Source: an uncultured Thiothrix sp.
Lineage (GTDB): Bacteria; Pseudomonadota; Gammaproteobacteria; Poriferisulfidales; GCA-002705445
Direction: 5' to 3'
DNA length: 64,000 nt
Assembly: GCA_902559815.1 (NCBI GenBank)
Contig: CACEJE010000001.1
Coordinates: forward strand, 36,465 to 100,464
Below the pieces are notes generated by a model, which worked only from the letters and a program-made list of their open reading frames with translations, was not told the DNA's origin and did no database searches. How positions within the stretch are numbered: position 1 is the stretch's first letter; each line of letters opens with the position of its first letter. Below, one piece after another: positions 34,484 to 62,807 of the stretch. A program made the position numbers and the translations under genes.

Positions 34484-37400
34484 TTAAGCAGCTACACTAT
34501 CCTTTTTAAGGAGTTCTTCAATTTTTATAGTTTTTGGTTTTACCATTAAGAATTTGTTAGCATAATTTTCAAAGTTATTTAATATTTCTTTGCCCCAATT
34601 ACTTTGTGTTTTTTTGCAGTAGTCTTCGATAGCAGTGATAAGGAAAGATTGTAATTCTGGGTAACTACTCATTTTTAAAATCTCTACAAGCTCTGGATTG
34701 TATTTATTTTTAAAATCATTATTTTCATCCAAGACTAGAGCAAACCCTCCCGACATTCCTGCTCCAAAGTTAATTCCAGTTTTACCTAAGATTATTACGA
34801 TACCGTTTGTCATATATTCACAACCGTGATCACCAACACCTTCGACAATTGCAATAGCACCTGAGTTTCTAACGGCAAATCTTTCTCCAGCAATTCCCGA
34901 TGCGTAAAGTTTACCCCCTGTTGCTCCATAAAGACAAGTATTTCCTATAATTACAGAATTTTTACTTTCAAAACCAGCTTCCTTTGGAGGATAAACAATT
35001 ATTTCACCGGAAGCCATTCCCTTGCCTACATAGTCATTAGCGTCACCTTCAAGAGTTAAATTCAAACCTCCTGCATTCCATACTCCAAAACTTTGTCCTG
35101 CAGTTCCTTCAAAGAAAAGGTTAATTGGTTTTTTAGACATTCCATAATTACCGTACAATTTTGCAATCAGACCTGAAGTACTAGCCCCAACAGATCTATC
35201 TGTGTTTTTGATTCTATATTTAAAGTTACCACCTAATTTATTTTCAATATTATTAATAACATCTTGATCAATCTGTTTAGATAATTCTGCTTTATCCCAC
35301 GGATCATTATTTTTGACTTCACAGAAGTGAGAGATATTTTTATCAACATTTGCATTAGATACTATAGGGTCGATTATTAAATTTTTTAATTTACCATCTT
35401 TTTTAGATTTAATTTTAAAAATTTCAGTTTTTCCAATTATATCTGATAGTTTTTTATAACCAAGGTTTGCTAAAATTATTCTGGTTTCCTGAGCAATGAA
35501 TTTAAAATAATTCATAACCATTTCATCTTTGCCAATAAAATGATATTTTCTTAAAATAGTATTTTGAGTAGCTACGCCAGTTGCGCAATTATTTAAATGA
35601 CAAATTCTTAAATATTTGCAACCCATAGCAATCATTGGGCCTGTACCAAAACCAAAACTTTCAGCTCCTAAAATTGCTGCCTTAATAACATCTAAACCAG
35701 TTTTTAATCCACCATCTGCTTGTAGTCTAATATTTTTTCTTAAATTATTTGCTCTTAAGGTCTGATGGGTTTCTGATAAGCCCATTTCCCAAGGACCTCC
35801 TGCATATTTTATACTTGATAGAGGACTAGCACCTGTTCCTCCATCATAACCAGATATAGTAATAAGGTCAGCGTAAGCTTTTGTAACGCCAGCTGCAATT
35901 GTTCCAACACCTGCTTCAGCTACCAACTTAACTGATACTAATGCCGCAGGATTAACTTGCTTGAGATCAAAAATGAGTTGCGCTAAATCTTCAATAGAAT
36001 ATATATCGTGATGGGGTGGCGGTGAAATTAACGTTATTCCTGGATTTGAGTATCTTAATGTTGCGATTAACTTATCAACTTTATCTCCCGGAAGTTGCCC
36101 ACCTTCTCCTGGCTTTGCTCCCTGTGCGATCTTAATTTGAATAACTTCTGCATTAACTAAGTAATGCGGAGTTACTCCGAATCTGCCAGATGCAACTTGT
36201 TTAATTTTAGAATTCTTGTCAGTATTAAATCTTTTTTCATCTTCTCCACCCTCTCCAGAGTTTGATCTTCCTCCCATTTTATTCATTGCTTGAGCTAATG
36301 TTTCATGAGCATCAGGCGAAAGCGCGCCAAGTGACATACCAGCTGAATCAAATCTTAGTAAAATATCTTCTATAGGCTCAACTTCATCAAGCGGGATAGG
36401 TTTTTTAGAACTTTTTAAATCTAATAAATCCCTAATTACCATCGTTTCTCTATTGTTTACGATGTTGCTATATTTTTCATAATCAGAATATTCTCCACTT
36501 TTGACAGCATCTTGAAGTGTTTTGACTACATCAGGATTATAAGCATGAAATTCTTCTCCATGAACATATTTCAGTAAGCCTCCTTGTTTAATACCTTTTC
36601 TTATGCTCCAAGTATTCTTTGCTAAAAGTTCTTGGTCTTTTTGAAGGTCATCAAAAGTTGTGCCTGACAGTCTATTTATCGTGTCACAAAAACATAAATC
36701 TACAACTTCTTGATTTAACCCTATGCATTCAAATAATTGAGAGCCTCTATAACTAGCTATTGTTGAAATTCCCATTTTTGATAAAATTTTAAATAAGCCT
36801 TTATTTATTCCTTGTCTGTAATTTCTTGTGGCTTCAAAAAATTCTGTATTATTATTAGATTTATTAAGAATCATACTGTTAAGTGATTGATAAGCTAAGT
36901 ATGGATATATAGCTGTTGCCCCATACCCGATTAAAGTAGCGCAATGGTGGGAGTCTCTAGCTGTAGCTGTTTCCACAATTATATTTACTTTTGTTCTTAA
37001 GCCATTATTAATCAACGCGTGATGAACTGCACCAGTAGCAAGTAAAGCATGAATTGGAATTTTTCCTTTTTTAATATTTTTATCCGTGAGTATAAGAAAA
37101 ACTATTTTATTTTTTGCAGACGTAATTGCTCTTTTTGTTAAGTCTTTGATAGCTTCTTCAAGAGGTATTTCAATAGAATAATTTAAGTCCAAAATCTCAT
37201 AAGTAAATTTTTTATTTTTCAATTCCTGTAATTGTTTAAATTTTCTAAAAGAGAGAATTGGAGATTCAATAGTTAATCTATGTGCATGCTCGGAACCTTC
37301 CTCAAAGACATTTAAGTCAGGCCCAAGGAATGTTTCTAATGACATGACATTACTTTCTCTTATAGGATCAATTGGGGGGTTAGTCACTTGAGCAAATTGT

Positions 37401-38950
37401 TGCCTAAAATAATCATATAAAGACCTTATTTCCTTAGATAGCACAGGAAATGGAGTATCATCGCCCATAGAGCCAATAGCTTCTTGGCTAAGCTTTGATA
37501 GCGGCTTTAGTATTTGATCTTTTTCTTCATATGAAACATTAAACATTTTTTCATATTGTTTAATCTGATTTTCATCAAAGAATTCTAATTCTGGAAACTT
37601 ATCGGGAATTATTCTTCTCATAGTTTCAGCTCCAGAATCCATCCATTCTTTATAAGGGCATCTGCTTTTTAAAATGTCATCAATGTCATTGGAATATAAA
37701 ATCTTATTCTCCTCTGTATCTACCGCAATTATTTGTCCAGGACCAAGCTTACCTTTTTCGATAACATCTTTTTCATCATAATCGTAGACTCCTATTTCAG
37801 AAGCTACGGTAATATGTCTATCCTTTGTAATTATATATCTTGCTGGCCTTAATCCATTTCTATCAGTCACGCAAGAAGCATATCTTCCGTCAGTTAGGAC
37901 AATACCAGCTGGTCCATCCCAAGATTCCATATGTTTAGCATTATATTCATAAAATGCTTTCAAATTATGATCGCTTTCTGGGATACTTTTCCAGGCAGGC
38001 GGTATGAGAAGCTTGATTGCTTTGAATAGGTTTACACCTCCAATTGTTAAAAGTTCAAGCATGTTATCTAAGCTTTTTGAATCAGAACCTTGCATAGAAA
38101 CTAGCGGTTTTAATTCATGAAGCTCGGGTATTTTTGGAGTTTTAAATATGCTAGATCTCGCTTGAGACCAATTTCTATTAGCTCTAATTGTATTTATTTC
38201 TCCATTATGGGCCAGCATTCTAAATGGCTGCGCTAAACTCCATTGAGGTGTAGTATTTGTTGAGAATCTTTGATGGAAAACGCAAAGCGAAGTCTCAAGA
38301 TTTTTATTTGATAAGTCGCTATAAAACTTTGCTAAATGTTTTGGCATGACCATACCTTTATATAAAATAACCTTGGATGAAAAACTTGAAATATAAAATG
38401 AATCATCTTTAGTATTTGATACAAGTATTTCAATCTTTCTTCTAACAACAAGTAATCTAGATTCGATGTTTGCAATGTCAATCTTTTCTGTTGGATTTAT
38501 AAATGCTTGTTTAATATAAGGAAGAGATCTAAGAGCATCTGTACCACAAATTTTTTCGTTAACAGGCACGTCTCTCCAGCCTGCTAAAATAAAATTATGT
38601 TCATTGAGAACTTTTTCAATAATTTTTATTGAAGCATCACGTTTCTTTTTGTCTGGATTAAGAAAAAACATACCTATAGCAAAATTTTTTGCTAAATTTA
38701 TTTTTTCTTCATTAGCAAGTGATCTAAAAAAATATTCTGGAATCTTGAATAATATGCCGCAGCCGTCCCCAGAAGTTCCATCGGCGCCTACAGCACCTCT
38801 GTGGGCAAGTCTTTCAAGTGCAGTGATAGCAGTATCTATAAGCCAATGACTAGGTTTGTTGTCGATATTAGCAATCAAGCCAAATCCGCAACTATCTTTT
38901 TCAAAGTCTTTATTGTATAAACCAGTTATTTTGTCTTTGTTAATTGTCAT
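34484..38950 (-). CDS. gltB: glutamate synthase large subunit
   Basis: 1488 aa. The Ntn amidotransferase start ...DSCGFG is followed by central, FMN/3Fe-4S and GXGXG C-terminal domains. Confidence 0.95.
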   Translation of the reverse strand: MTINKDKITGLYNKDFEKDSCGFGLIANIDNKPSHWLIDTAITALERLAHRGAVGADGTSGDGCGILFKIPEYFFRSLANEEKINLAKNFAIGMFFLNPDKKKRDASIKIIEKVLNEHNFILAGWRDVPVNEKICGTDALRSLPYIKQAFINPTEKIDIANIESRLLVVRRKIEILVSNTKDDSFYISSFSSKVILYKGMVMPKHLAKFYSDLSNKNLETSLCVFHQRFSTNTTPQWSLAQPFRMLAHNGEINTIRANRNWSQARSSIFKTPKIPELHELKPLVSMQGSDSKSLDNMLELLTIGGVNLFKAIKLLIPPAWKSIPESDHNLKAFYEYNAKHMESWDGPAGIVLTDGRYASCVTDRNGLRPARYIITKDRHITVASEIGVYDYDEKDVIEKGKLGPGQIIAVDTEENKILYSNDIDDILKSRCPYKEWMDSGAETMRRIIPDKFPELEFFDENQIKQYEKMFNVSYEEKDQILKPLSKLSQEAIGSMGDDTPFPVLSKEIRSLYDYFRQQFAQVTNPPIDPIRESNVMSLETFLGPDLNVFEEGSEHAHRLTIESPILSFRKFKQLQELKNKKFTYEILDLNYSIEIPLEEAIKDLTKRAITSAKNKIVFLILTDKNIKKGKIPIHALLATGAVHHALINNGLRTKVNIIVETATARDSHHCATLIGYGATAIYPYLAYQSLNSMILNKSNNNTEFFEATRNYRQGINKGLFKILSKMGISTIASYRGSQLFECIGLNQEVVDLCFCDTINRLSGTTFDDLQKDQELLAKNTWSIRKGIKQGGLLKYVHGEEFHAYNPDVVKTLQDAVKSGEYSDYEKYSNIVNNRETMVIRDLLDLKSSKKPIPLDEVEPIEDILLRFDSAGMSLGALSPDAHETLAQAMNKMGGRSNSGEGGEDEKRFNTDKNSKIKQVASGRFGVTPHYLVNAEVIQIKIAQGAKPGEGGQLPGDKVDKLIATLRYSNPGITLISPPPHHDIYSIEDLAQLIFDLKQVNPAALVSVKLVAEAGVGTIAAGVTKAYADLITISGYDGGTGASPLSSIKYAGGPWEMGLSETHQTLRANNLRKNIRLQADGGLKTGLDVIKAAILGAESFGFGTGPMIAMGCKYLRICHLNNCATGVATQNTILRKYHFIGKDEMVMNYFKFIAQETRIILANLGYKKLSDIIGKTEIFKIKSKKDGKLKNLIIDPIVSNANVDKNISHFCEVKNNDPWDKAELSKQIDQDVINNIENKLGGNFKYRIKNTDRSVGASTSGLIAKLYGNYGMSKKPINLFFEGTAGQSFGVWNAGGLNLTLEGDANDYVGKGMASGEIIVYPPKEAGFESKNSVIIGNTCLYGATGGKLYASGIAGERFAVRNSGAIAIVEGVGDHGCEYMTNGIVIILGKTGINFGAGMSGGFALVLDENNDFKNKYNPELVEILKMSSYPELQSFLITAIEDYCKKTQSNWGKEILNNFENYANKFLMVKPKTIKIEELLKKDSVAA

Positions 38951-38970
38951 ACTCTAAAATATCAATTTCA

Positions 38971-39064
38971 CTAGAGTTTGATGATAGATCACCAAACTCT
39001 AGGTTAAAAGTTTGGTGCGTTCCTTCAGCGTTTAAACCTACTTCCGTCCTAAAAGGATGAACGT
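38971..39064 (-). promoter_or_regulatory. glutamine riboswitch-like leader (glnA RNA motif) with alternative-helix expression platform
   Basis: The minus-strand RNA reads CGUUCAUCCUUUUAGGACGGAAGUAGGUUUAAACGCUGAAGGAACG. It has a P1 CGUUC/GAACG and the conserved cores GGACGGAAGUAG and GAAGGAACG. Two mutually exclusive helices follow, sharing AGUUUG. Confidence 0.7.
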
Positions 39065-39070
39065 ATTAAC

Positions 39071-39099
39071 AGTATAGAACTTGACGCCTATTCATTCAA
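39071..39099 (-). promoter_or_regulatory. sigma70-type promoter for the gltB leader
   Basis: The minus strand reads TTGAAT - 17 nt - TATACT. The predicted start site falls a few nt before the aptamer P1. Confidence 0.5.
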
Positions 39100-39137
39100 T
39101 GTAATTATCTAATATTTATATTTCGAACAGGTAAACG

Positions 39138-40280
39138 CTATTTAAACAACCTCTGGTGCTCTTGTTGAGCAAATCTATCAGTCATACCAGCAATATAATC
39201 ACATATAACTCTCTCTTTGTGCCCCAAATTAATTTTATCAATATTGTGAGCGCAATATTCTTCTGAAATTAGATTAAGATCATTGTTATATGCTAGAAAT
39301 AGGTCCTTAATAATAACATTAGCTCGATTGGTCATGACCACAACGTCTGGGTGCATATAAAGGTTTTTATATAAAAATTTTTTCAGTTCAATATTTAATC
39401 TTTTTATTTCATCAGAAAAACAAATAAGAGTTTTTTTACAATTTCTAACATCCTCACTCGTAGAAATATTTTCTTTTTTGATTTCTTCATTAGAATTTTT
39501 TATTACATCATTTACTAACATATTTATTATCTTCCTAACAGTTTCACTAACTATTTTTGACTTTGATAATCTTGGATATTTTGCTAACACTTCACTCATT
39601 TGATCATAGAAAATTGGCAAATCTTCGAGCTGTTCTATAAATATTTTTTTTGCTTTTATTCCATCTTGAATATCATGATTATTATAAGCAATTTCATCGC
39701 ATATATTTGTCAACTGAGCTTCTAGTGATGGATTTTTTTTTTCAATAAATCTATTCCCAACAGATCCTAATTTTTTTGCAAGAGACAAACTACATCTTTT
39801 TAATATTCCTTCCCTAGTTTCAAAGCATAGATTTATGCCTGGAAAGTTTGCATATTGATTCTCTAATTTATCAATTATTCTTAGTGATTGAATATTATGT
39901 TCAAAACCACCAAATTCTTTCATACATTTATTTAATATATCTTGTCCAGCGTGGCCGAATGGTGTGTGCCCTAAATCGTGTGCTAATGATATTGCTTCAG
40001 TCAAGTCCTCATTTATTTTTAATGCCCTCGCAACAGCCCTTGATATTTGGGCAACTTCTATAGTATGAGTAAGCCTAGTTCTATACATATCACCTTCATG
40101 ATTTACAAAAACTTGTGTTTTATATTCAAGTCTCCTAAAAGCTGTAGAATGAATTATTCTTTCACGATCTCTTTGAAATTCTGACCTTAAATTAGGCGGA
40201 TCTTCATTATGAACACGACCTAAGCTTTTTGAAGATTTTAAGGCATAAGAAGCAAGGCGATTTTCAATTTCATTGGGCAT
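39138..40280 (-). CDS. dGTPase-like deoxyguanosinetriphosphate triphosphohydrolase family protein (HD domain)
   Basis: 380 aa. RSEFQRDRERIIHSTAFRRLEYKTQVF, THTIEV and LAHDLGHTPFGHAG. Confidence 0.82.
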   Translation of the reverse strand: MPNEIENRLASYALKSSKSLGRVHNEDPPNLRSEFQRDRERIIHSTAFRRLEYKTQVFVNHEGDMYRTRLTHTIEVAQISRAVARALKINEDLTEAISLAHDLGHTPFGHAGQDILNKCMKEFGGFEHNIQSLRIIDKLENQYANFPGINLCFETREGILKRCSLSLAKKLGSVGNRFIEKKNPSLEAQLTNICDEIAYNNHDIQDGIKAKKIFIEQLEDLPIFYDQMSEVLAKYPRLSKSKIVSETVRKIINMLVNDVIKNSNEEIKKENISTSEDVRNCKKTLICFSDEIKRLNIELKKFLYKNLYMHPDVVVMTNRANVIIKDLFLAYNNDLNLISEEYCAHNIDKINLGHKERVICDYIAGMTDRFAQQEHQRLFK

Positions 40281-45436: not shown

Positions 45437-46849
<1,413 letters not shown>

Positions 46850-49366: not shown

Positions 49367-49906
49367 ATGTACGAAATCAAAAATAAGTCTGTAAAACGTG
49401 GTGGCAAAAGATTAGGTGCTGGGCGCAAGAGTCTCTATGGTGTGCCTACCAAAGCAATTCGTGTTCCAGAGAATATGGTTGCAGAAGTAAGAGATTTTAT
49501 AGAATCACAAAATACAGCTGAATATGAATTACCATTATTTGCTTCAAAAGTAGCTGCCGGCTTTCCTTCGCCTGCCGATGATTTTATGGATACCAAACTT
49601 GATTTAAATAGTCATTTAATTAAAACACCAAGTGCTACATTTTTTGTCCGTGTCTCAGGTGAATCGATGATTAATGCAGGTATTCATGATGGTGATTTAT
49701 TAGTAGTAGACCGTAGTCTTGAACCACAGGTTGGTAAGATTGTAATTGCTGCAATTCAACATGAACTTACTGTTAAGCGTTATGCGAAAATAAACGGTAA
49801 AGTTTATTTAGCGCCAGAGAATGATGCGTATGAACCAATTTTAGTGAGTGAAGAAGATGAAGTCCATATTTGGGGTGTAGTTACTAATGTCATTCATGCG
49901 GTATAA
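49367..49906 (+). CDS. umuD: UmuD-like S24 autopeptidase (Pol V accessory subunit) with N-terminal extension
   Basis: 179 aa. Cleavage-site context VAAGFPSPADD (Ala-Gly), Ser nucleophile SGESM and Lys in LTVKRY. It carries an extra basic N-terminus of about 50 aa (RGGKRLGAGRK). Confidence 0.8.
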   Translation: MYEIKNKSVKRGGKRLGAGRKSLYGVPTKAIRVPENMVAEVRDFIESQNTAEYELPLFASKVAAGFPSPADDFMDTKLDLNSHLIKTPSATFFVRVSGESMINAGIHDGDLLVVDRSLEPQVGKIVIAAIQHELTVKRYAKINGKVYLAPENDAYEPILVSEEDEVHIWGVVTNVIHAV

Positions 49907-49909
49907 CGC

Positions 49910-51187
49910 ATGTCTTCGCTTAAGCCAGATCCTCTTTACGCCCTAGTTGACTGCAATAACTTTTATTGTTCTTGTGAGCGAGTTTTCAACCCAGCTTTGG
50001 AAAAAAAACCTATTGCTGTTTTATCTAATAATGATGGTTGTATTGTAGCGCGTTCCAATGAGATTAAAGAATTAGGAATTCCTATGGGTGCTCCTATGTT
50101 TCAATATAAAAAATTATTAGAGCAAAAAAAAGCTATTATTTTATCATCGAATTATCAGTTGTACGGCGACATGTCGCAGCGTGTTATGGAAACATTACGT
50201 CAATTTACTCCTGCCATGGAAGTCTACTCTATTGATGAAGCATTCTTACGTTTAGAAGAATTTAGACGATTAGACTTAATGAAATATTGTTTAGATATTC
50301 GTAAAACAGTAAAACAATGGACAGGTATCCCTGTTTCAATTGGCATTGCCCCTAATAAAACATTAGCTAAAGTTGCTAATCACATTGCAAAAAAAAATAC
50401 GGATATAGGTGTATTTAATATTTGTAAAAGGCAAACACAAAATGAGATTTTAGCTAATTTTCCTGTTGGTGATATTTGGGGGATAGGAAGACAGTTAGCA
50501 AAACGTTTAAATGAAATGGGTATTAATACTGCTTTAAAATTAAGGGATGTTGATATTGTATGGGCACGAAAACATTTTACTATAGTTGGAGAACGTTTGG
50601 TCCGAGAGCTTAGGGGTTTAAGTTGTTTAGACTTAGAAGAAGTGACAGCAAAAAAAAATATTACTTCATCAAAATCATTTGGCAAATTAGTAACTGATAA
50701 AAAAGAATTGATGAATGCTATTGCTAATTATACAACACGTGCTTGCCATAAATTACGTTTACAAAATAGTAAAGCGCAAGGTATTTATGTTTATTTAAGA
50801 ACTAATCCTTTTCGTCGTCAAGATCCTCAATATAATAATGGTACAACTTATGGGTTTACGGAGCCAAGCGATGATACAGCTTTCATAATTAAAGCAGCAA
50901 GAAAATGTTTAGAGCAAATTTATTCTAAAGGCTATAAATATCATAAAGCTGGCATTATGTTATTAGATATTGTTCCTGCTACATACAAACAAATGGAAAT
51001 GTTTGATACAGAAGAGAGTAAAGCTCGTAGTCAATTAATGCAAACTATTGATGCTATGAATATGACGATGGGACAAGATACGATTCGCTTCGCCGCACAA
51101 GGCATTGATCATCCATGGGCTAGAAAATGTGAGCATCGAACCCCGAGGTATACGACGAATTGGAAAGAACTTGTGAAAGTAATATAA
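49910..51187 (+). CDS. umuC: Y-family DNA polymerase V catalytic subunit
   Basis: 425 aa. ALVDCNNFYCSCERVF, SIDEAFL and a GIG helix-hairpin-helix (IWGIGRQLAKRL). Confidence 0.85.
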   Translation: MSSLKPDPLYALVDCNNFYCSCERVFNPALEKKPIAVLSNNDGCIVARSNEIKELGIPMGAPMFQYKKLLEQKKAIILSSNYQLYGDMSQRVMETLRQFTPAMEVYSIDEAFLRLEEFRRLDLMKYCLDIRKTVKQWTGIPVSIGIAPNKTLAKVANHIAKKNTDIGVFNICKRQTQNEILANFPVGDIWGIGRQLAKRLNEMGINTALKLRDVDIVWARKHFTIVGERLVRELRGLSCLDLEEVTAKKNITSSKSFGKLVTDKKELMNAIANYTTRACHKLRLQNSKAQGIYVYLRTNPFRRQDPQYNNGTTYGFTEPSDDTAFIIKAARKCLEQIYSKGYKYHKAGIMLLDIVPATYKQMEMFDTEESKARSQLMQTIDAMNMTMGQDTIRFAAQGIDHPWARKCEHRTPRYTTNWKELVKVI

Positions 51188-52707: not shown

Positions 52708-53709
52708 TTATTTTACTAAAATATGAAGATACTCAAAAGTATTATCAGCTTTATGGTTTCTGTTTTCTGTTTTATCTGCCTTAAATCTTTGATATTTTTT
52801 TTTGACTAATTTATATTTTCCATACTTTTTCATTATGTCTTTAGTAGTTTTTTCATTCATAAGACCTTCATTGTTATAACTAAGAAAAATATATTTAAAT
52901 TTTGCATATTTTATTAATTCTTCAAAACTATTACTGATGTCTTTTTTTATACAATATTTTGATCGCGTATATTCTCTTAAGCCAGTTTTACCTTGAGGAG
53001 TAAAGTTATCATATAAAGAAATAGTGTTAAGCAAATGATAATTTGCACCATATTGCCTATGATTATATGGTGGATCTAAATACAAAATATCACCACTTAT
53101 TTTACGAATAAGAGTATTACTATCTTCATTAAAAACTTTATGAGAATTTTTACTTTCTATAAAATCTGCAGGTTCTAGAATCAGATTCTTTTGGGCAGAT
53201 TTTTTAATATGTTTTAAAAAGGCACCATAAACAGAAGCCGTGTTAGCAACTTTATCAGCACTTTCTAATAAGGATGCAAGTAAGAAGTAATAAGTTTTTT
53301 TGTTAATTTTTTTTGAAGATTTCCATTCTTCGATTTTTATTCTTATGGTATCTATTTTTTTTCCATTATGATCTGTAAAGTACTGTCGGTTACTACCACT
53401 TCCAATACAATAGTTTTTAAAAATAAAACCATTCTTACACAATGGTAATGAATTTAGTTCACTTAGAAGACTTTCACTATTAGGAATTTTTATTTTATTT
53501 TCAATATAATTTTTATTTAATATATAACTGTAATGTTCTATATCATTACTAATTACTTTTTTAACTTTATTTTTGAAAGTTCTCCCTACAATACCTGTTC
53601 CTGCAAAAATATCGCAAAATGTTTTATCTTGTAAATTTCCATTCACTGTATGACTGATTTTATTTAATAACCAGGAAGATAATTTAAATTTTGACCCAAT
53701 ATAATTCAA
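52708..53709 (-). CDS. N6-adenine DNA methyltransferase, D12 class (alpha architecture)
   Basis: 333 aa. MNYIGSKFKL, motif I DIFAGTG and motif IV YLDPPYN, about 175 aa later with the TRD between them. Confidence 0.8.
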   Translation of the reverse strand: MNYIGSKFKLSSWLLNKISHTVNGNLQDKTFCDIFAGTGIVGRTFKNKVKKVISNDIEHYSYILNKNYIENKIKIPNSESLLSELNSLPLCKNGFIFKNYCIGSGSNRQYFTDHNGKKIDTIRIKIEEWKSSKKINKKTYYFLLASLLESADKVANTASVYGAFLKHIKKSAQKNLILEPADFIESKNSHKVFNEDSNTLIRKISGDILYLDPPYNHRQYGANYHLLNTISLYDNFTPQGKTGLREYTRSKYCIKKDISNSFEELIKYAKFKYIFLSYNNEGLMNEKTTKDIMKKYGKYKLVKKKYQRFKADKTENRNHKADNTFEYLHILVK

Positions 53710-60456: not shown

Positions 60457-60957
60457 ATGTCAACATTTGTATATATGACCCGTTGTGATGGTTGCGGCCA
60501 CTGCGTTGATATCTGCCCGTCGGATATCATGCATATTGATCCAAAAATTAGACGTGCCGTCAACATTGAACCTAATTTCTGTTGGGAATGCTATTCTTGC
60601 GTGAAAGCTTGCCCACAAAATGCTATTGATGCTCGAGGCTATGCTGACTTCGCTCCTATGGGTCACAAAGTTAGAGTTCTTAGAGAAGAAGAAAAAGGGA
60701 CAATCTCTTGGAAAATTACATTTAGAAATGGAACAGAAAAGAATTTTGTGTCTCCAATTACTACTAAACCTTGGGGCAAGCATATACATAAAGTTGCTGA
60801 CGCACCTGTTCCAGACGCAGCGGCACACGAATCACAATTACTTTTTAACGAGCCAGAATATTTAAAAATTGGTGATAACAGGGATAAAAAACTTATCAAT
60901 GAAGATGGTTTGCCTGTCCGTGAAAAAGAAACATTTAAACAAGGGGTGTATTACTAA
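60457..60957 (+). CDS. aprB: adenylylsulfate reductase beta subunit
   Basis: 166 aa. Two ferredoxin motifs, CDGCGHCVDICP and CWECYSCVKACP, plus the AprB-specific C-terminal tail. Confidence 0.9.
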   Translation: MSTFVYMTRCDGCGHCVDICPSDIMHIDPKIRRAVNIEPNFCWECYSCVKACPQNAIDARGYADFAPMGHKVRVLREEEKGTISWKITFRNGTEKNFVSPITTKPWGKHIHKVADAPVPDAAAHESQLLFNEPEYLKIGDNRDKKLINEDGLPVREKETFKQGVYY

Positions 60958-62807
60958 TGGCAAATCATAAAACAGTTTACGAAGATTGCGATATCCTAGT
61001 TGTTGGCGGAGGAATGGCTGGTACTGGAGCCACTTTTGAGTCTCGCTATTGGGGTCGTGACATGAAAATAGTATGTGTTGAAAAAGCAAATATTGACCGA
61101 AGTGGTGCTGTAGCACAGGGTCTATATGCAATTAACTGCTATATGGGTACTCGTTGGAATGAAAACCAGCCAGAAGATCATGTTCGCTATGCTAGAAATG
61201 ATCTTATGGGAATGGTTAGAGAAGATTTAGCATTAGATATGGCTCGTCACGTAGACTCAGCAGTTCATATGTTTGAAGAATGGGGTCTGCCATTAATGAA
61301 AAATAAAGAAGGTCGCTATCAACGAGAAGGAAAATGGCAAATCATGATCCATGGCGAAAGTTATAAACCAATCGTAGCTGAAGCGGCAAAAAAATCTGCT
61401 AGTAAAGTTTATAATCGTGTAATGATCACTCATCTTTTAAAAGATGAAAGCAATGATAATCGTTGTGGTGGTGCAGTTGGATTCAATATGAGAACAGGTG
61501 ATTTTCATGTTTTCCGTGCTAAGGCAACAATTATATGTGCTGGCGGTGCTTCTCACATATTTAAGCCAAGAGCTGTTGGAGAAGGAATGGGAAGAACATG
61601 GTATGCCCCATGGAGTAATGGTTCTTGCTATGCTTTACCAATTGCATTGGGCGCAAAAATGACACAAATGGAAAATAGAATTGTATTATGTCGTTTTAAA
61701 GATGGATATGGTCCTGTTGGAGCATATTTCTTACATCTTAAAACTTATACTCAAAATACATACGGTGAAGAGTATGAATCAAAATGGTATGACCAAACAA
61801 AAGAAATGGTTGGAGAATACATTGATCATCACCCAACACCAACATGTTTAAGAAACCATGCTTTCTTAGAAGAGGTGAAAGCTGGTAGAGGTCCAATACA
61901 CATGGTTACAATGGAAGCTTTCCAAGATCCACATCTTGAAGTAATTGGATGGGAAAATTTCTTAGGAATGACAGTAGGACAAGCTGTAGTATGGGCTTCA
62001 CAAGATATTGATCCTAAATATCAAAACCCAGAGTTAACAACTTCAGAGCCATACGTTATGGGTTCGCATGCAACATGTTCTGGAGCTTGGGTTAGTGGAC
62101 CTTCTGATTTAGCTCCAAAAGAATATTACTGGGGTTATAACCGTATGATGACAGTTGATGGTTTATTTGGAGCTGGTGACACAGTAGGTGGAACTGCACA
62201 TAAATTTTCGTCAGGCTCATTTACAGAAGGCCGTTTAGCTGCAAAGGCTGCTGTTCAATACATTAATGATATGGAAACAAAGCCTAGCGTATCAGAAAAA
62301 CAAATTAATAACTTTAAAGAAGAAGTTTATAAACCATTAGAGAACTACACAGTTGGTAGAAACGAAATTACCGCTGGTACTGTTTCTCCAAGTTACATTC
62401 TTCCAATACAAGGCTTACAAAGATTGCAGAAAATTATGGATGAATATTGTGGCGGTATTGGTACTAATTATATGACTAATGGAAATCTTTTAAAACAAGG
62501 CCTAAAAAATCTAGATATTCTTCAAGAAGACTTAGAGCATGTTGGCGCTGAAGATTTACATCAGCTAATGAGAGCTTGGGAATTAAAACATCGTGCATTA
62601 GTGTCGCAATGTGTTACTGAGCATACATTATTTAGGGAAGAAACACGTTGGCCAGGATATTATTACCGTGGAGATCATATGAAATTAGATGATGATAATT
62701 GGCATTGCTTAACTTTGTCTCGTCGTGATCCTAAAACAGGTAAATTTACCATGGAAAAAGCTCCGCTGTACCATATTGTGGATGAGGAGCAAAAAAAGGC
62801 AGGCTAA
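60957..62807 (+). CDS. aprA: adenylylsulfate reductase alpha subunit
   Basis: 616 aa. FAD fold ILVVGGGMAGTGA and conserved AprA blocks (GAVAQGLYAINCYMG, WQIMIHGESYK, EETRWPGYYYR). Confidence 0.92.
   Translation: MANHKTVYEDCDILVVGGGMAGTGATFESRYWGRDMKIVCVEKANIDRSGAVAQGLYAINCYMGTRWNENQPEDHVRYARNDLMGMVREDLALDMARHVDSAVHMFEEWGLPLMKNKEGRYQREGKWQIMIHGESYKPIVAEAAKKSASKVYNRVMITHLLKDESNDNRCGGAVGFNMRTGDFHVFRAKATIICAGGASHIFKPRAVGEGMGRTWYAPWSNGSCYALPIALGAKMTQMENRIVLCRFKDGYGPVGAYFLHLKTYTQNTYGEEYESKWYDQTKEMVGEYIDHHPTPTCLRNHAFLEEVKAGRGPIHMVTMEAFQDPHLEVIGWENFLGMTVGQAVVWASQDIDPKYQNPELTTSEPYVMGSHATCSGAWVSGPSDLAPKEYYWGYNRMMTVDGLFGAGDTVGGTAHKFSSGSFTEGRLAAKAAVQYINDMETKPSVSEKQINNFKEEVYKPLENYTVGRNEITAGTVSPSYILPIQGLQRLQKIMDEYCGGIGTNYMTNGNLLKQGLKNLDILQEDLEHVGAEDLHQLMRAWELKHRALVSQCVTEHTLFREETRWPGYYYRGDHMKLDDDNWHCLTLSRRDPKTGKFTMEKAPLYHIVDEEQKKAG

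Follow-up and report, generated by a model that had tools for sequence, protein, structure and literature searches.

A probable glutamine riboswitch with a predicted three-helix expression platform in the gltB leader of an uncultured gammaproteobacterium

The DNA described here is a stretch of 64,000 nucleotides (the window) from contig CACEJE010000001.1 of an uncultured Thiothrix sp. Its subject is the leader of gltB, the gene for the 1488-residue large subunit of glutamate synthase (GOGAT). The leader occupies the intergenic region 38951-39137, between the stop codon of dgt (dGTPase, 40280-39138, minus strand) and the start of gltB (34484-38950, minus strand; NCBIfam NF008730, 2427 bits), the presumed regulated gene. 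It almost certainly holds a true aptamer of the glutamine-I riboswitch class (Rfam RF01739, the glnA RNA motif), as judged from its sequence. Between the aptamer and the start codon lie strands that can pair in two competing ways, and these may form a relay through which glutamine would control the translation of gltB. All features of the leader described below are on the minus strand.

The covariance model of RF01739 matches positions 39014-39065 with 55.3 bits (E value 1.9e-9), against a gathering score of 35, and the match is untruncated, covering model positions 1-53 of 53. The first-pass annotation of this DNA, made from the letters alone, had proposed a glnA-motif glutamine riboswitch in the gltB leader pending such a search, and the search bears the proposal out. 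A chance match is unlikely, because the score lies 20 bits above a curated threshold and every highly conserved position of the model is matched. The aptamer is the sole riboswitch match in the window, where the other Rfam match above threshold is one tRNA. A permissive Rfam search (E up to 1) found no second aptamer in the window and reported no match there to RF01704 (Downstream-peptide). A second copy of the aptamer was also absent from 37 related loci (L121-L157).

The aptamer consists of three stems around a junction, and its conservation can be judged in 21 distinct leaders from relatives. The 5' strand of stem P1, CGUUC (39059-39063), pairs with 39018-39022; it is invariant in all 21 leaders and was independently predicted by RNAalifold. 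The P2 hairpin, UCCU-UUU-AGGA (39047-39057), has a stem that is 98.8% paired across the leaders and a loop whose length ranges from 3 to about 15 nucleotides (nt). Next comes the joining segment J2/3, CGGAAGUA (39039-39046), which does not vary in any of the 21. The P3 hairpin, GGU-UUAAAC-GCU (39027-39038), has a helix that is 98.4% paired; its outer pair is G-U in 14 leaders, G-C in 4, A-U in 2 and an unpaired A-C in 1. The J3/1 segment GAAG and the P1 3' strand GAACG (together 39018-39026) are again the same in 21 of 21. The three-stem junction with CGGAAGUA, GAAG and CGUUC/GAACG is thus complete in the window and invariant among the leaders, while the sequences of P2 and P3 depart from the Rfam consensus yet still pair. 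The P1 helix (39063-39059 with 39022-39018) and the cores GGACGGAAGUAG and GAAGGAACG had already been recognized in the first-pass annotation, and all of them are present on the minus strand as it described.

In the structures of Ren et al., as two secondary accounts describe them, glutamine wedges between G22 and G23 of J2/3, and a glutamine-induced G23-C60 pair at the base of P1, the linchpin, melts a short helix attached to P1 (PMC6212724; PMC11477058). When the numbering is mapped by position, the GG at 39045-39044 would be the counterpart of G22 and G23, supplying both the glutamine sandwich and the linchpin G. The C directly after P1, at 39017, corresponds to C60 and is also the first base of a downstream helix, helix A. 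Both linchpin partners of the class, G39044 and C39017, are present here and invariant in the leaders.

The position of the aptamer is also that of its class: it lies in the 5' untranslated region (UTR) before a nitrogen-metabolism gene, on the same strand, with its 3' end 63 nt 5' of the gltB AUG and downstream of a conserved promoter. Its secondary-structure energy is no better than that of shuffled sequences (z +0.57); since tertiary contacts hold such an aptamer together, we consider this value uninformative and do not count it against the aptamer. We regard the element as a well-conserved glutamine riboswitch that probably functions, with glutamine as its predicted ligand.

Relatives were gathered in several ways. 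Species-representative genomes were scanned with the first 200 residues of GltB, which gave eight loci. The leader set consists of five metagenome-assembled genomes (MAGs; JAYOZO01, JAYNQN01, JAYQIN01, JBJKYB01 and CAJYAP01), two NCBI assemblies reached through relatives of RpoD, and 29 marine metagenome contigs, and it contains 21 distinct leaders in all. The pattern used to scan the metagenomes was blind to the platform, asking for the aptamer core followed, after 115-145 nt, by codons for the catalytic CGFG motif; the 29 marine contigs were its matches. In all five MAGs, both assemblies and all 29 contigs, gltB is preceded by this aptamer, promoter and platform, and two of the contigs have a leader identical to that of the window. 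The two NCBI assemblies, found through a different protein, carry the same leader.

The five closest MAGs (77-97% GltB identity) all have an RF01739 match at the same site, with 57.5-60.8 bits. Homologous gltB leaders, whose alignment had been put forward as a check on the first-pass proposal, all keep the cores and the stems, at 57-61 bits. The gammaproteobacterial context suggested there agrees with the titles of the five MAG records ("Gammaproteobacteria bacterium" or "Thiothrix sp.", a genus name that is implausible at 30.6% GC). Two more distant loci, L126 and L128 (47% and 71% identical over the part that matched), have no RF01739 match at the gathering score in the 2.5 kb upstream of each. 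A third, L127, offers just 56 nt of upstream sequence and was left out of the count of aptamer presence.

The leader core is more conserved than codon positions 1 and 3 of the gene that follows it. Mean pairwise identity is 0.88 in the leader core, from P1 to the last strand of the platform (strand 3), compared with 0.80 at codon position 1 and 0.53 at codon position 3 of gltB. In the promoter spacer it is 0.60, and in the spacer between strand 3 and the AUG it is also 0.60. Differences within the leader core sit in the loops of P2, P3 and the platform helices A and B.

The platform is built from three strands, the first of which starts directly after P1. Strand 1, CACCAAACUUU (39007-39017), is the 5' arm of helix A. 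Strand 2, CUAGAGUUUGGUGA (38989-39002), with the invariant core GUUUGGUG, contains the 3' arm of helix A (38990-39000) and is the 5' arm of helix B. Strand 3 (38971-38984) is the 3' arm of helix B, UCAUCAAACUCUAG, and also provides the 5' arm of helix C. Helix A joins CACCAAACUUU (39017-39007) to AGAGUUUGGUG (39000-38990) in an 11-base-pair (bp) hairpin of -13.2 kcal/mol (z -5.0). Helix B joins CUAGAGUUUGGUGA (39002-38989) to UCAUCAAACUCUAG (38984-38971) in 14 bp closed by a 4-nt loop, with -18.0 kcal/mol (z -7.9). None of 200 shuffled sequences folds as well as helix A alone, and the same holds for helix B alone. Helix C pairs 38981-38971 with 38957-38947, as ACUCUAG/UUAGAGU and UCA/UGA, at -7.6 kcal/mol. 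Its 3' arm (38947-38957; UUAGAGU, then A, then UGA) spans positions -7 to +4 around the gltB start and covers the AUG.

Since strand 2 is common to A and B, and strand 3 is common to B and C, the leader has two states, one with A and C and one with B. In folding models these two states are closely balanced, at -20.8 kcal/mol for A with C and -18.0 kcal/mol for B. The calculations show that the three helices exist, that they are mutually exclusive in this way, and that the energies of the two states are nearly equal. Two mutually exclusive helices had been described in the first-pass annotation: CACCAAACU (39017-39009) with AGUUUGGUG (38998-38990), and CUAGAGUUUG (39002-38993) with CAAACUCUAG (38980-38971). 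Both are present at those positions, but each is longer than described, with 11 bp in A and 14 bp in B, and the third helix, C, had been missed.

Evidence for helices A and B also comes from the relatives. Applied to the 21 leaders, RNAalifold returns a consensus that consists of exactly P1, P2, P3 and A. Pairing is kept in 99.6% of cells of the alignment for helix A and in 93.4% for helix B; as a control, shifting the 3' partners by 1-3 columns leaves 26-50% of cells paired, counted over the entire structure tested. The changes in helix B are all wobble-compatible, and those in the stems are G-C to G-U or U-A to U-G. The arms of helix C differ between sub-clades and stay complementary, as ACUCUAG/UUAGAGU, AUUCAAG/UUUGAGU or UUCAUA/UAUGAA. 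With helix A enforced, strand 3 together with 8 additional nt forms 6-16 bp with the initiation region in 21 of 21 leaders.

The platform does not look like a terminator. No terminator-like site was found in 38800-39300, and no run of U follows helix A or B in any relative. An additional pairing that would form in the ligand-free state, between UAGGUUUAAA in the aptamer and UUUUAACCUA in the loop of helix A, was considered and rejected; it is seen in the window and lost in relatives, and locus L149 alters the aptamer side with no compensatory change.

Strand 2 and the loop of helix B also include GGUGAUC (38989-38995), which we take to be complementary to the 3' end of 16S rRNA (GAUCACC). Strand 1 contains CACC, and only GGUGA is conserved among relatives. 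This complementarity is probably a by-product of helix B; a standby site for the ribosome is possible. No small open reading frames (ORFs) were found on the gene strand of the leader, and two antisense ORFs of 33 and 38 residues there are without support. An in-frame UAG lies two codons 5' of the gltB AUG.

Transcription is likely to be driven by a sigma-70 promoter with a -35 hexamer TTGAAT (39094-39099), found by motif scan, and a -10 hexamer TATACT (39071-39076) that ends 7 nt before P1. This promoter had been called good in the first-pass annotation. Its position and its 17-nt spacer stand up, but it matches the consensus at only 9 of 12 positions and, as a single sequence, does not stand out from shuffles (3 sites against 2.3 expected). 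Among 21 distinct upstream regions of relatives, TTGAAT is kept in 19, the -10 element is TATAAT in 17 and TATACT in 4, and the spacer is 17 nt long in 20, with variable sequence (60% mean identity). The promoter is supported because the hexamers and the spacer length are conserved while the spacer sequence varies. The -10 hexamer ends 7-12 nt before CGUUC in relatives. From these spacings, transcription is predicted to start at the aptamer or a few bases 5' of it, at about 39064-39067 in the window. A conserved AT-rich motif, ATATA(A/G)NT..ATT..CA, occurs about 30-40 nt 5' of the -35 hexamer and just past the dgt stop in most relatives; the sub-clade of the window has a different AT-rich sequence there, near 39105-39130 (minus strand). 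The motif may serve as an UP element or bind a regulator.

Folding calculations connect the A/B choice to the start codon. Opening the region from -12 to +4 costs a mean of 7.2 kcal/mol with helix A enforced and 3.0 kcal/mol with helix B enforced, and the direction of this difference holds in 20 of 21 leaders. The coupling difference, 4.25 kcal/mol, compares with 0.84 +/- 0.34 kcal/mol (maximum 1.77) for dinucleotide-shuffled spacers in 40 shuffle sets. Because C39017 is both the first base of helix A and the presumed linchpin partner, the linchpin and the closing pair of A would be mutually exclusive. When C39017 alone was blocked in the leader of the window, with the aptamer stems enforced, the probabilities changed from 0.78 for A and 0.21 for B to 0.03 for A and 0.97 for B. 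Across the 21 leaders, the probability of B exceeds 0.5 in 15, 15, 19 and 21 when 1, 2, 3 and 4 bases of this tail are blocked, respectively.

These results suggest the following model. The conserved sigma-70 promoter would start the transcript a few bases 5' of the aptamer. Without glutamine, helix A would form first during transcription and serve as the default, because strands 1 and 2 are transcribed before strand 3. Strand 3 would then be left free for helix C, which would bury the AUG and keep the translation of gltB off. With glutamine bound, the G of J2/3 would pair with the C after P1 to form the linchpin and so remove the closing base of helix A. Weakening of A would let strands 2 and 3 join in helix B, which would block helix C, open the start region and turn translation on. 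High glutamine would thus raise GOGAT, the enzyme that consumes glutamine. We consider this full relay, in which binding, the transcription start, translational control and an ON response are all predicted, to be moderately probable.

Several observations weigh against the relay or limit its reach. Taken alone, helix C of the window is not exceptional (z -1.3; 21 of 200 shuffled sequences fold equally well), and the region 5' of the AUG is without a clear Shine-Dalgarno sequence at normal spacing. The sub-clade represented by L132 and L134 shows no such coupling (0.5 and -0.5 kcal/mol); there helix A is favored by 6-9 kcal/mol, and strand 3 pairs with codons 3-5 instead. Helix B is already favored in 7 of 21 leaders with zero tail bases blocked. 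The nearest-neighbor energies behind these values are uncertain by about 2 kcal/mol and take no account of the tertiary fold of the aptamer. Covariation gives no help: within the clade there are no two-sided changes in the pairs of P1, P2, P3, A or B, and the covariation score does not exceed that of shuffles. The covariation in P1 and P2 that had been hoped for at the outset thus failed to appear. Covariation is uninformative here because the stems barely vary, and the support for A and B accordingly rests on conservation and energetics. A permissive Rfam search (E up to 1) found no glutamine aptamer upstream of gltD, the gene for the GOGAT small subunit, so that the large subunit would be under riboswitch control and gltD would not. 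Finally, the rest of helix A may stack on the linchpin pair, in which case the ligand might not weaken A and the direction of the response could reverse.

Such a reversal defines the strongest alternative, which uses the same aptamer and the same helices. Glutamine would stabilize P1, helix A would stack on it coaxially, and the state with A and C would be favored, turning gltB off at high glutamine. This geometry is possible, since no linker separates the P1 3' strand from helix A, and many bacteria cut the capacity of glutamine synthetase (GS) and GOGAT under nitrogen plenty. Klahn et al. deemed negative regulation reasonable for metagenomic aptamers before glnA (PMC6212724). An OFF switch of this kind would nevertheless need something to open helix A when no ligand is bound, and no sequence for this was found; the candidate pairing UAGGUU/AACCUA is not conserved, its change in L149 being uncompensated. 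In the published account, the short helix on P1 melts upon binding, and the C that here closes A is taken up (PMC6212724; PMC11477058); those members of the class that have been tested by experiment act as ON switches (PMC6212724). OFF logic is thus unlikely.

A second alternative keeps a glutamine-binding aptamer and moves the point of control. The choice between A and B would set Rho-dependent termination or mRNA decay in the leader or in early gltB, and hence the level of dnaG and rpoD. The dnaG ATG lies 1 nt past the gltB stop and is followed by rpoD, an order conserved in relatives with enough flanking sequence; an untranslated gltB of 4.5 kb would be a natural Rho substrate, and the leader is without a clear Shine-Dalgarno sequence. 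Against these points, helix C covers the AUG in 21 of 21 leaders with a coupling well above that of the shuffled controls, no C-rich, G-poor tract like a Rho-utilization (rut) site is apparent in the AT-rich leader, and making the essential dnaG and rpoD depend on glutamine seems risky. As a primary mechanism this appears very doubtful, but it is compatible with the translational relay as a secondary, polar effect.

It is highly improbable that the aptamer-like sequence no longer binds a ligand or is a chance match, with static hairpins that serve, for example, mRNA stability: the aptamer is known here from sequence, and covariation is missing in the clade, but the score stands 20 bits over the curated threshold with all highly conserved model positions matched, the leader core is more conserved than the first codon positions of gltB (0.88 against 0.80), and strand 2 has two highly significant alternative partners, which a static fold does not predict.

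The surroundings of the leader are constant among relatives: gltD-hemE, ponA on the opposite strand, aroK-aroB-dgt, the aptamer, and gltB-dnaG-rpoD. The order gltB, dnaG, rpoD is kept in every relative with enough flank. DnaG identity across the relatives is just 64-70%, and the gene order is nonetheless unchanged. In the usual arrangement, dnaG and rpoD belong to an operon rpsU-yqeY-dnaG-rpoD. In the window this operon appears to be split between 47581-44366 and 34482-30859, both on the minus strand. An rpsU-like ORF at about 47581-47366 (minus strand), a candidate from translation by eye, is followed by a 155-residue ORF (47357-46890, minus strand) without an NCBIfam match, which we take to be GatB/YqeY-like, and then by gltD-hemE. 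Downstream of gltB, dnaG-rpoD lie about 12.5 kb beyond the rpsU- and yqeY-like ORFs, in the same order in relatives with enough flank. The gltD gene (45437-46828, minus strand) is 6.5 kb apart from gltB.

The window has a guanine-plus-cytosine (GC) content of 30.6%. At least 120 clusters of RpoD relatives share 90% identity or more with the protein of the window, and contigs of 1.12-1.15 Mb carry several of them, which suggests that the host clade consists of abundant marine bacteria with very small genomes. The genes aprB and aprA for adenosine 5'-phosphosulfate (APS) reductase, at 60457-62807 (plus strand), are the sole evidence of sulfur metabolism in the annotated part of the window. The umuD-umuC genes for the error-prone polymerase V (49367-51187, plus strand) adjoin several ORFs without a family match, as does a gene for a D12-class adenine methyltransferase (52708-53709, minus strand). 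This stretch is possibly a small, flexible part of a genome that is otherwise streamlined.

Neither the riboswitch class nor its association with glutamate synthase is new; what this leader adds is the host lineage and the platform. In scale the finding is an ordinary extension of a known family and not a new kind of element. The examples found here are all linked to glutamate synthase and come from marine gammaproteobacteria of a widespread clade, whose genomes have about 1.1 Mb and 30% GC. With a gammaproteobacterial host, RNA-based sensing of glutamine would not be a cyanobacterial specialty. The platform is simple and strongly conserved, with the linchpin C opening a competing helix, and the mechanism could be tested by a few point mutations. 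With its sigma-70-type promoter, the leader could probably be tested in E. coli.

An influence on dnaG-rpoD, which the first-pass annotation had also raised, is plausible because the dnaG ATG follows the gltB stop by 1 nt. With gltB in one operon with dnaG-rpoD, glutamine might tune the supply of primase and sigma factor through polarity. Under a broader reading, this would be the first glutamine riboswitch to show its full signal path in the sequence itself, with the linchpin tipping a balanced helix that sets GOGAT translation in an abundant clade of marine bacteria outside the cyanobacteria, together with polar tuning of dnaG-rpoD. This combination is quite unlikely. If true, it would link nitrogen status directly to replication and transcription capacity, by way of primase and the housekeeping sigma factor, in a streamlined genome.

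Glutamate synthase was among the genes associated with the motif already in 2010, mostly in marine metagenomes (PMC2864571). Using RefSeq release 80, Klahn et al. in 2018 found the class in cyanobacteria only, besides metagenomic examples of unknown origin, and the mode of action of type 1 was then called unclear (PMC6212724). The presence of RF01739 in SAR86 MAGs was mentioned in passing in 2025 (PMC12379486). No description of this gltB leader or its platform was found in the literature.

A survey in 2017 counted just two phage examples of the glutamine riboswitch (PMC5473149). At least 120 viral contigs in IMG/VR (L001-L120) carry the core pattern of the glutamine aptamer, and the cores are in tandem in 6 of 80 viral loci listed. 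Among the matches listed, the downstream ORFs are mostly 25-65 residues long, and many have YRGV repeats, which we take to be associated with DUF4278/gifB-like proteins. The CACCAAAC platform was not found among the viral matches listed.

The gltB leader can be compared with several known systems. Translational riboswitch platforms in general use mutually exclusive sequestor and anti-sequestor helices, with one strand common to two of them, to set the pairing of the initiation region. The platform described here differs in having three tiers: an anti-anti-sequestor (A), an anti-sequestor (B) and a sequestor (C). Its input also seems to differ: one base pair at the base of P1 would replace P1 formation as the signal.

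The gltD motif of Selenomonadales and Veillonellales is likewise a riboswitch candidate for which glutamine was suggested as the ligand (PMC8632094). It is unrelated in sequence and fold, precedes gltD and not gltB, and is found in Firmicutes-related hosts. A closer relative is the type 2 glutamine riboswitch (Downstream-peptide, RF01704), which shares related cores, the glutamine ligand and a marine distribution (PMC2864571, PMC6212724). Type 2 is a pseudoknotted structure of two stems that precedes short ORFs of the DUF4278 type in picocyanobacteria, whereas the aptamer described here precedes the gene for an enzyme of 1488 residues.

The closest comparison is with type 1, known from Synechocystis gifB and from aptamer structures of Synechococcus. 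Both have three stems and the invariant cores CGUUCA, CGGAAGUA and GAAGGAACGCA, both lie in the 5' UTR of a nitrogen-assimilation gene, and in both a conserved C after P1 joins the aptamer to the platform. They also share the proposed ON logic, and in cyanobacteria, as would be the case here, the induced protein lowers glutamine. The host differs, being a gammaproteobacterium here, while the class is otherwise known from cyanobacteria and marine metagenomes (PMC6212724). So does the gene, which here encodes the large subunit of NADPH-GOGAT and in Synechocystis the GS-inactivating factor IF17. For Synechocystis, the published accounts propose that C68 and the following bases pair with the ribosome-binding site (RBS) and that binding turns translation on (PMC6212724; PMC11477058). 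As the first-pass annotation had expected, the platform of the gltB leader is unlike this cyanobacterial example: in place of the tail-to-RBS pairing proposed for gifB (PMC6212724), the tail of the aptamer would open a relay of three helices.

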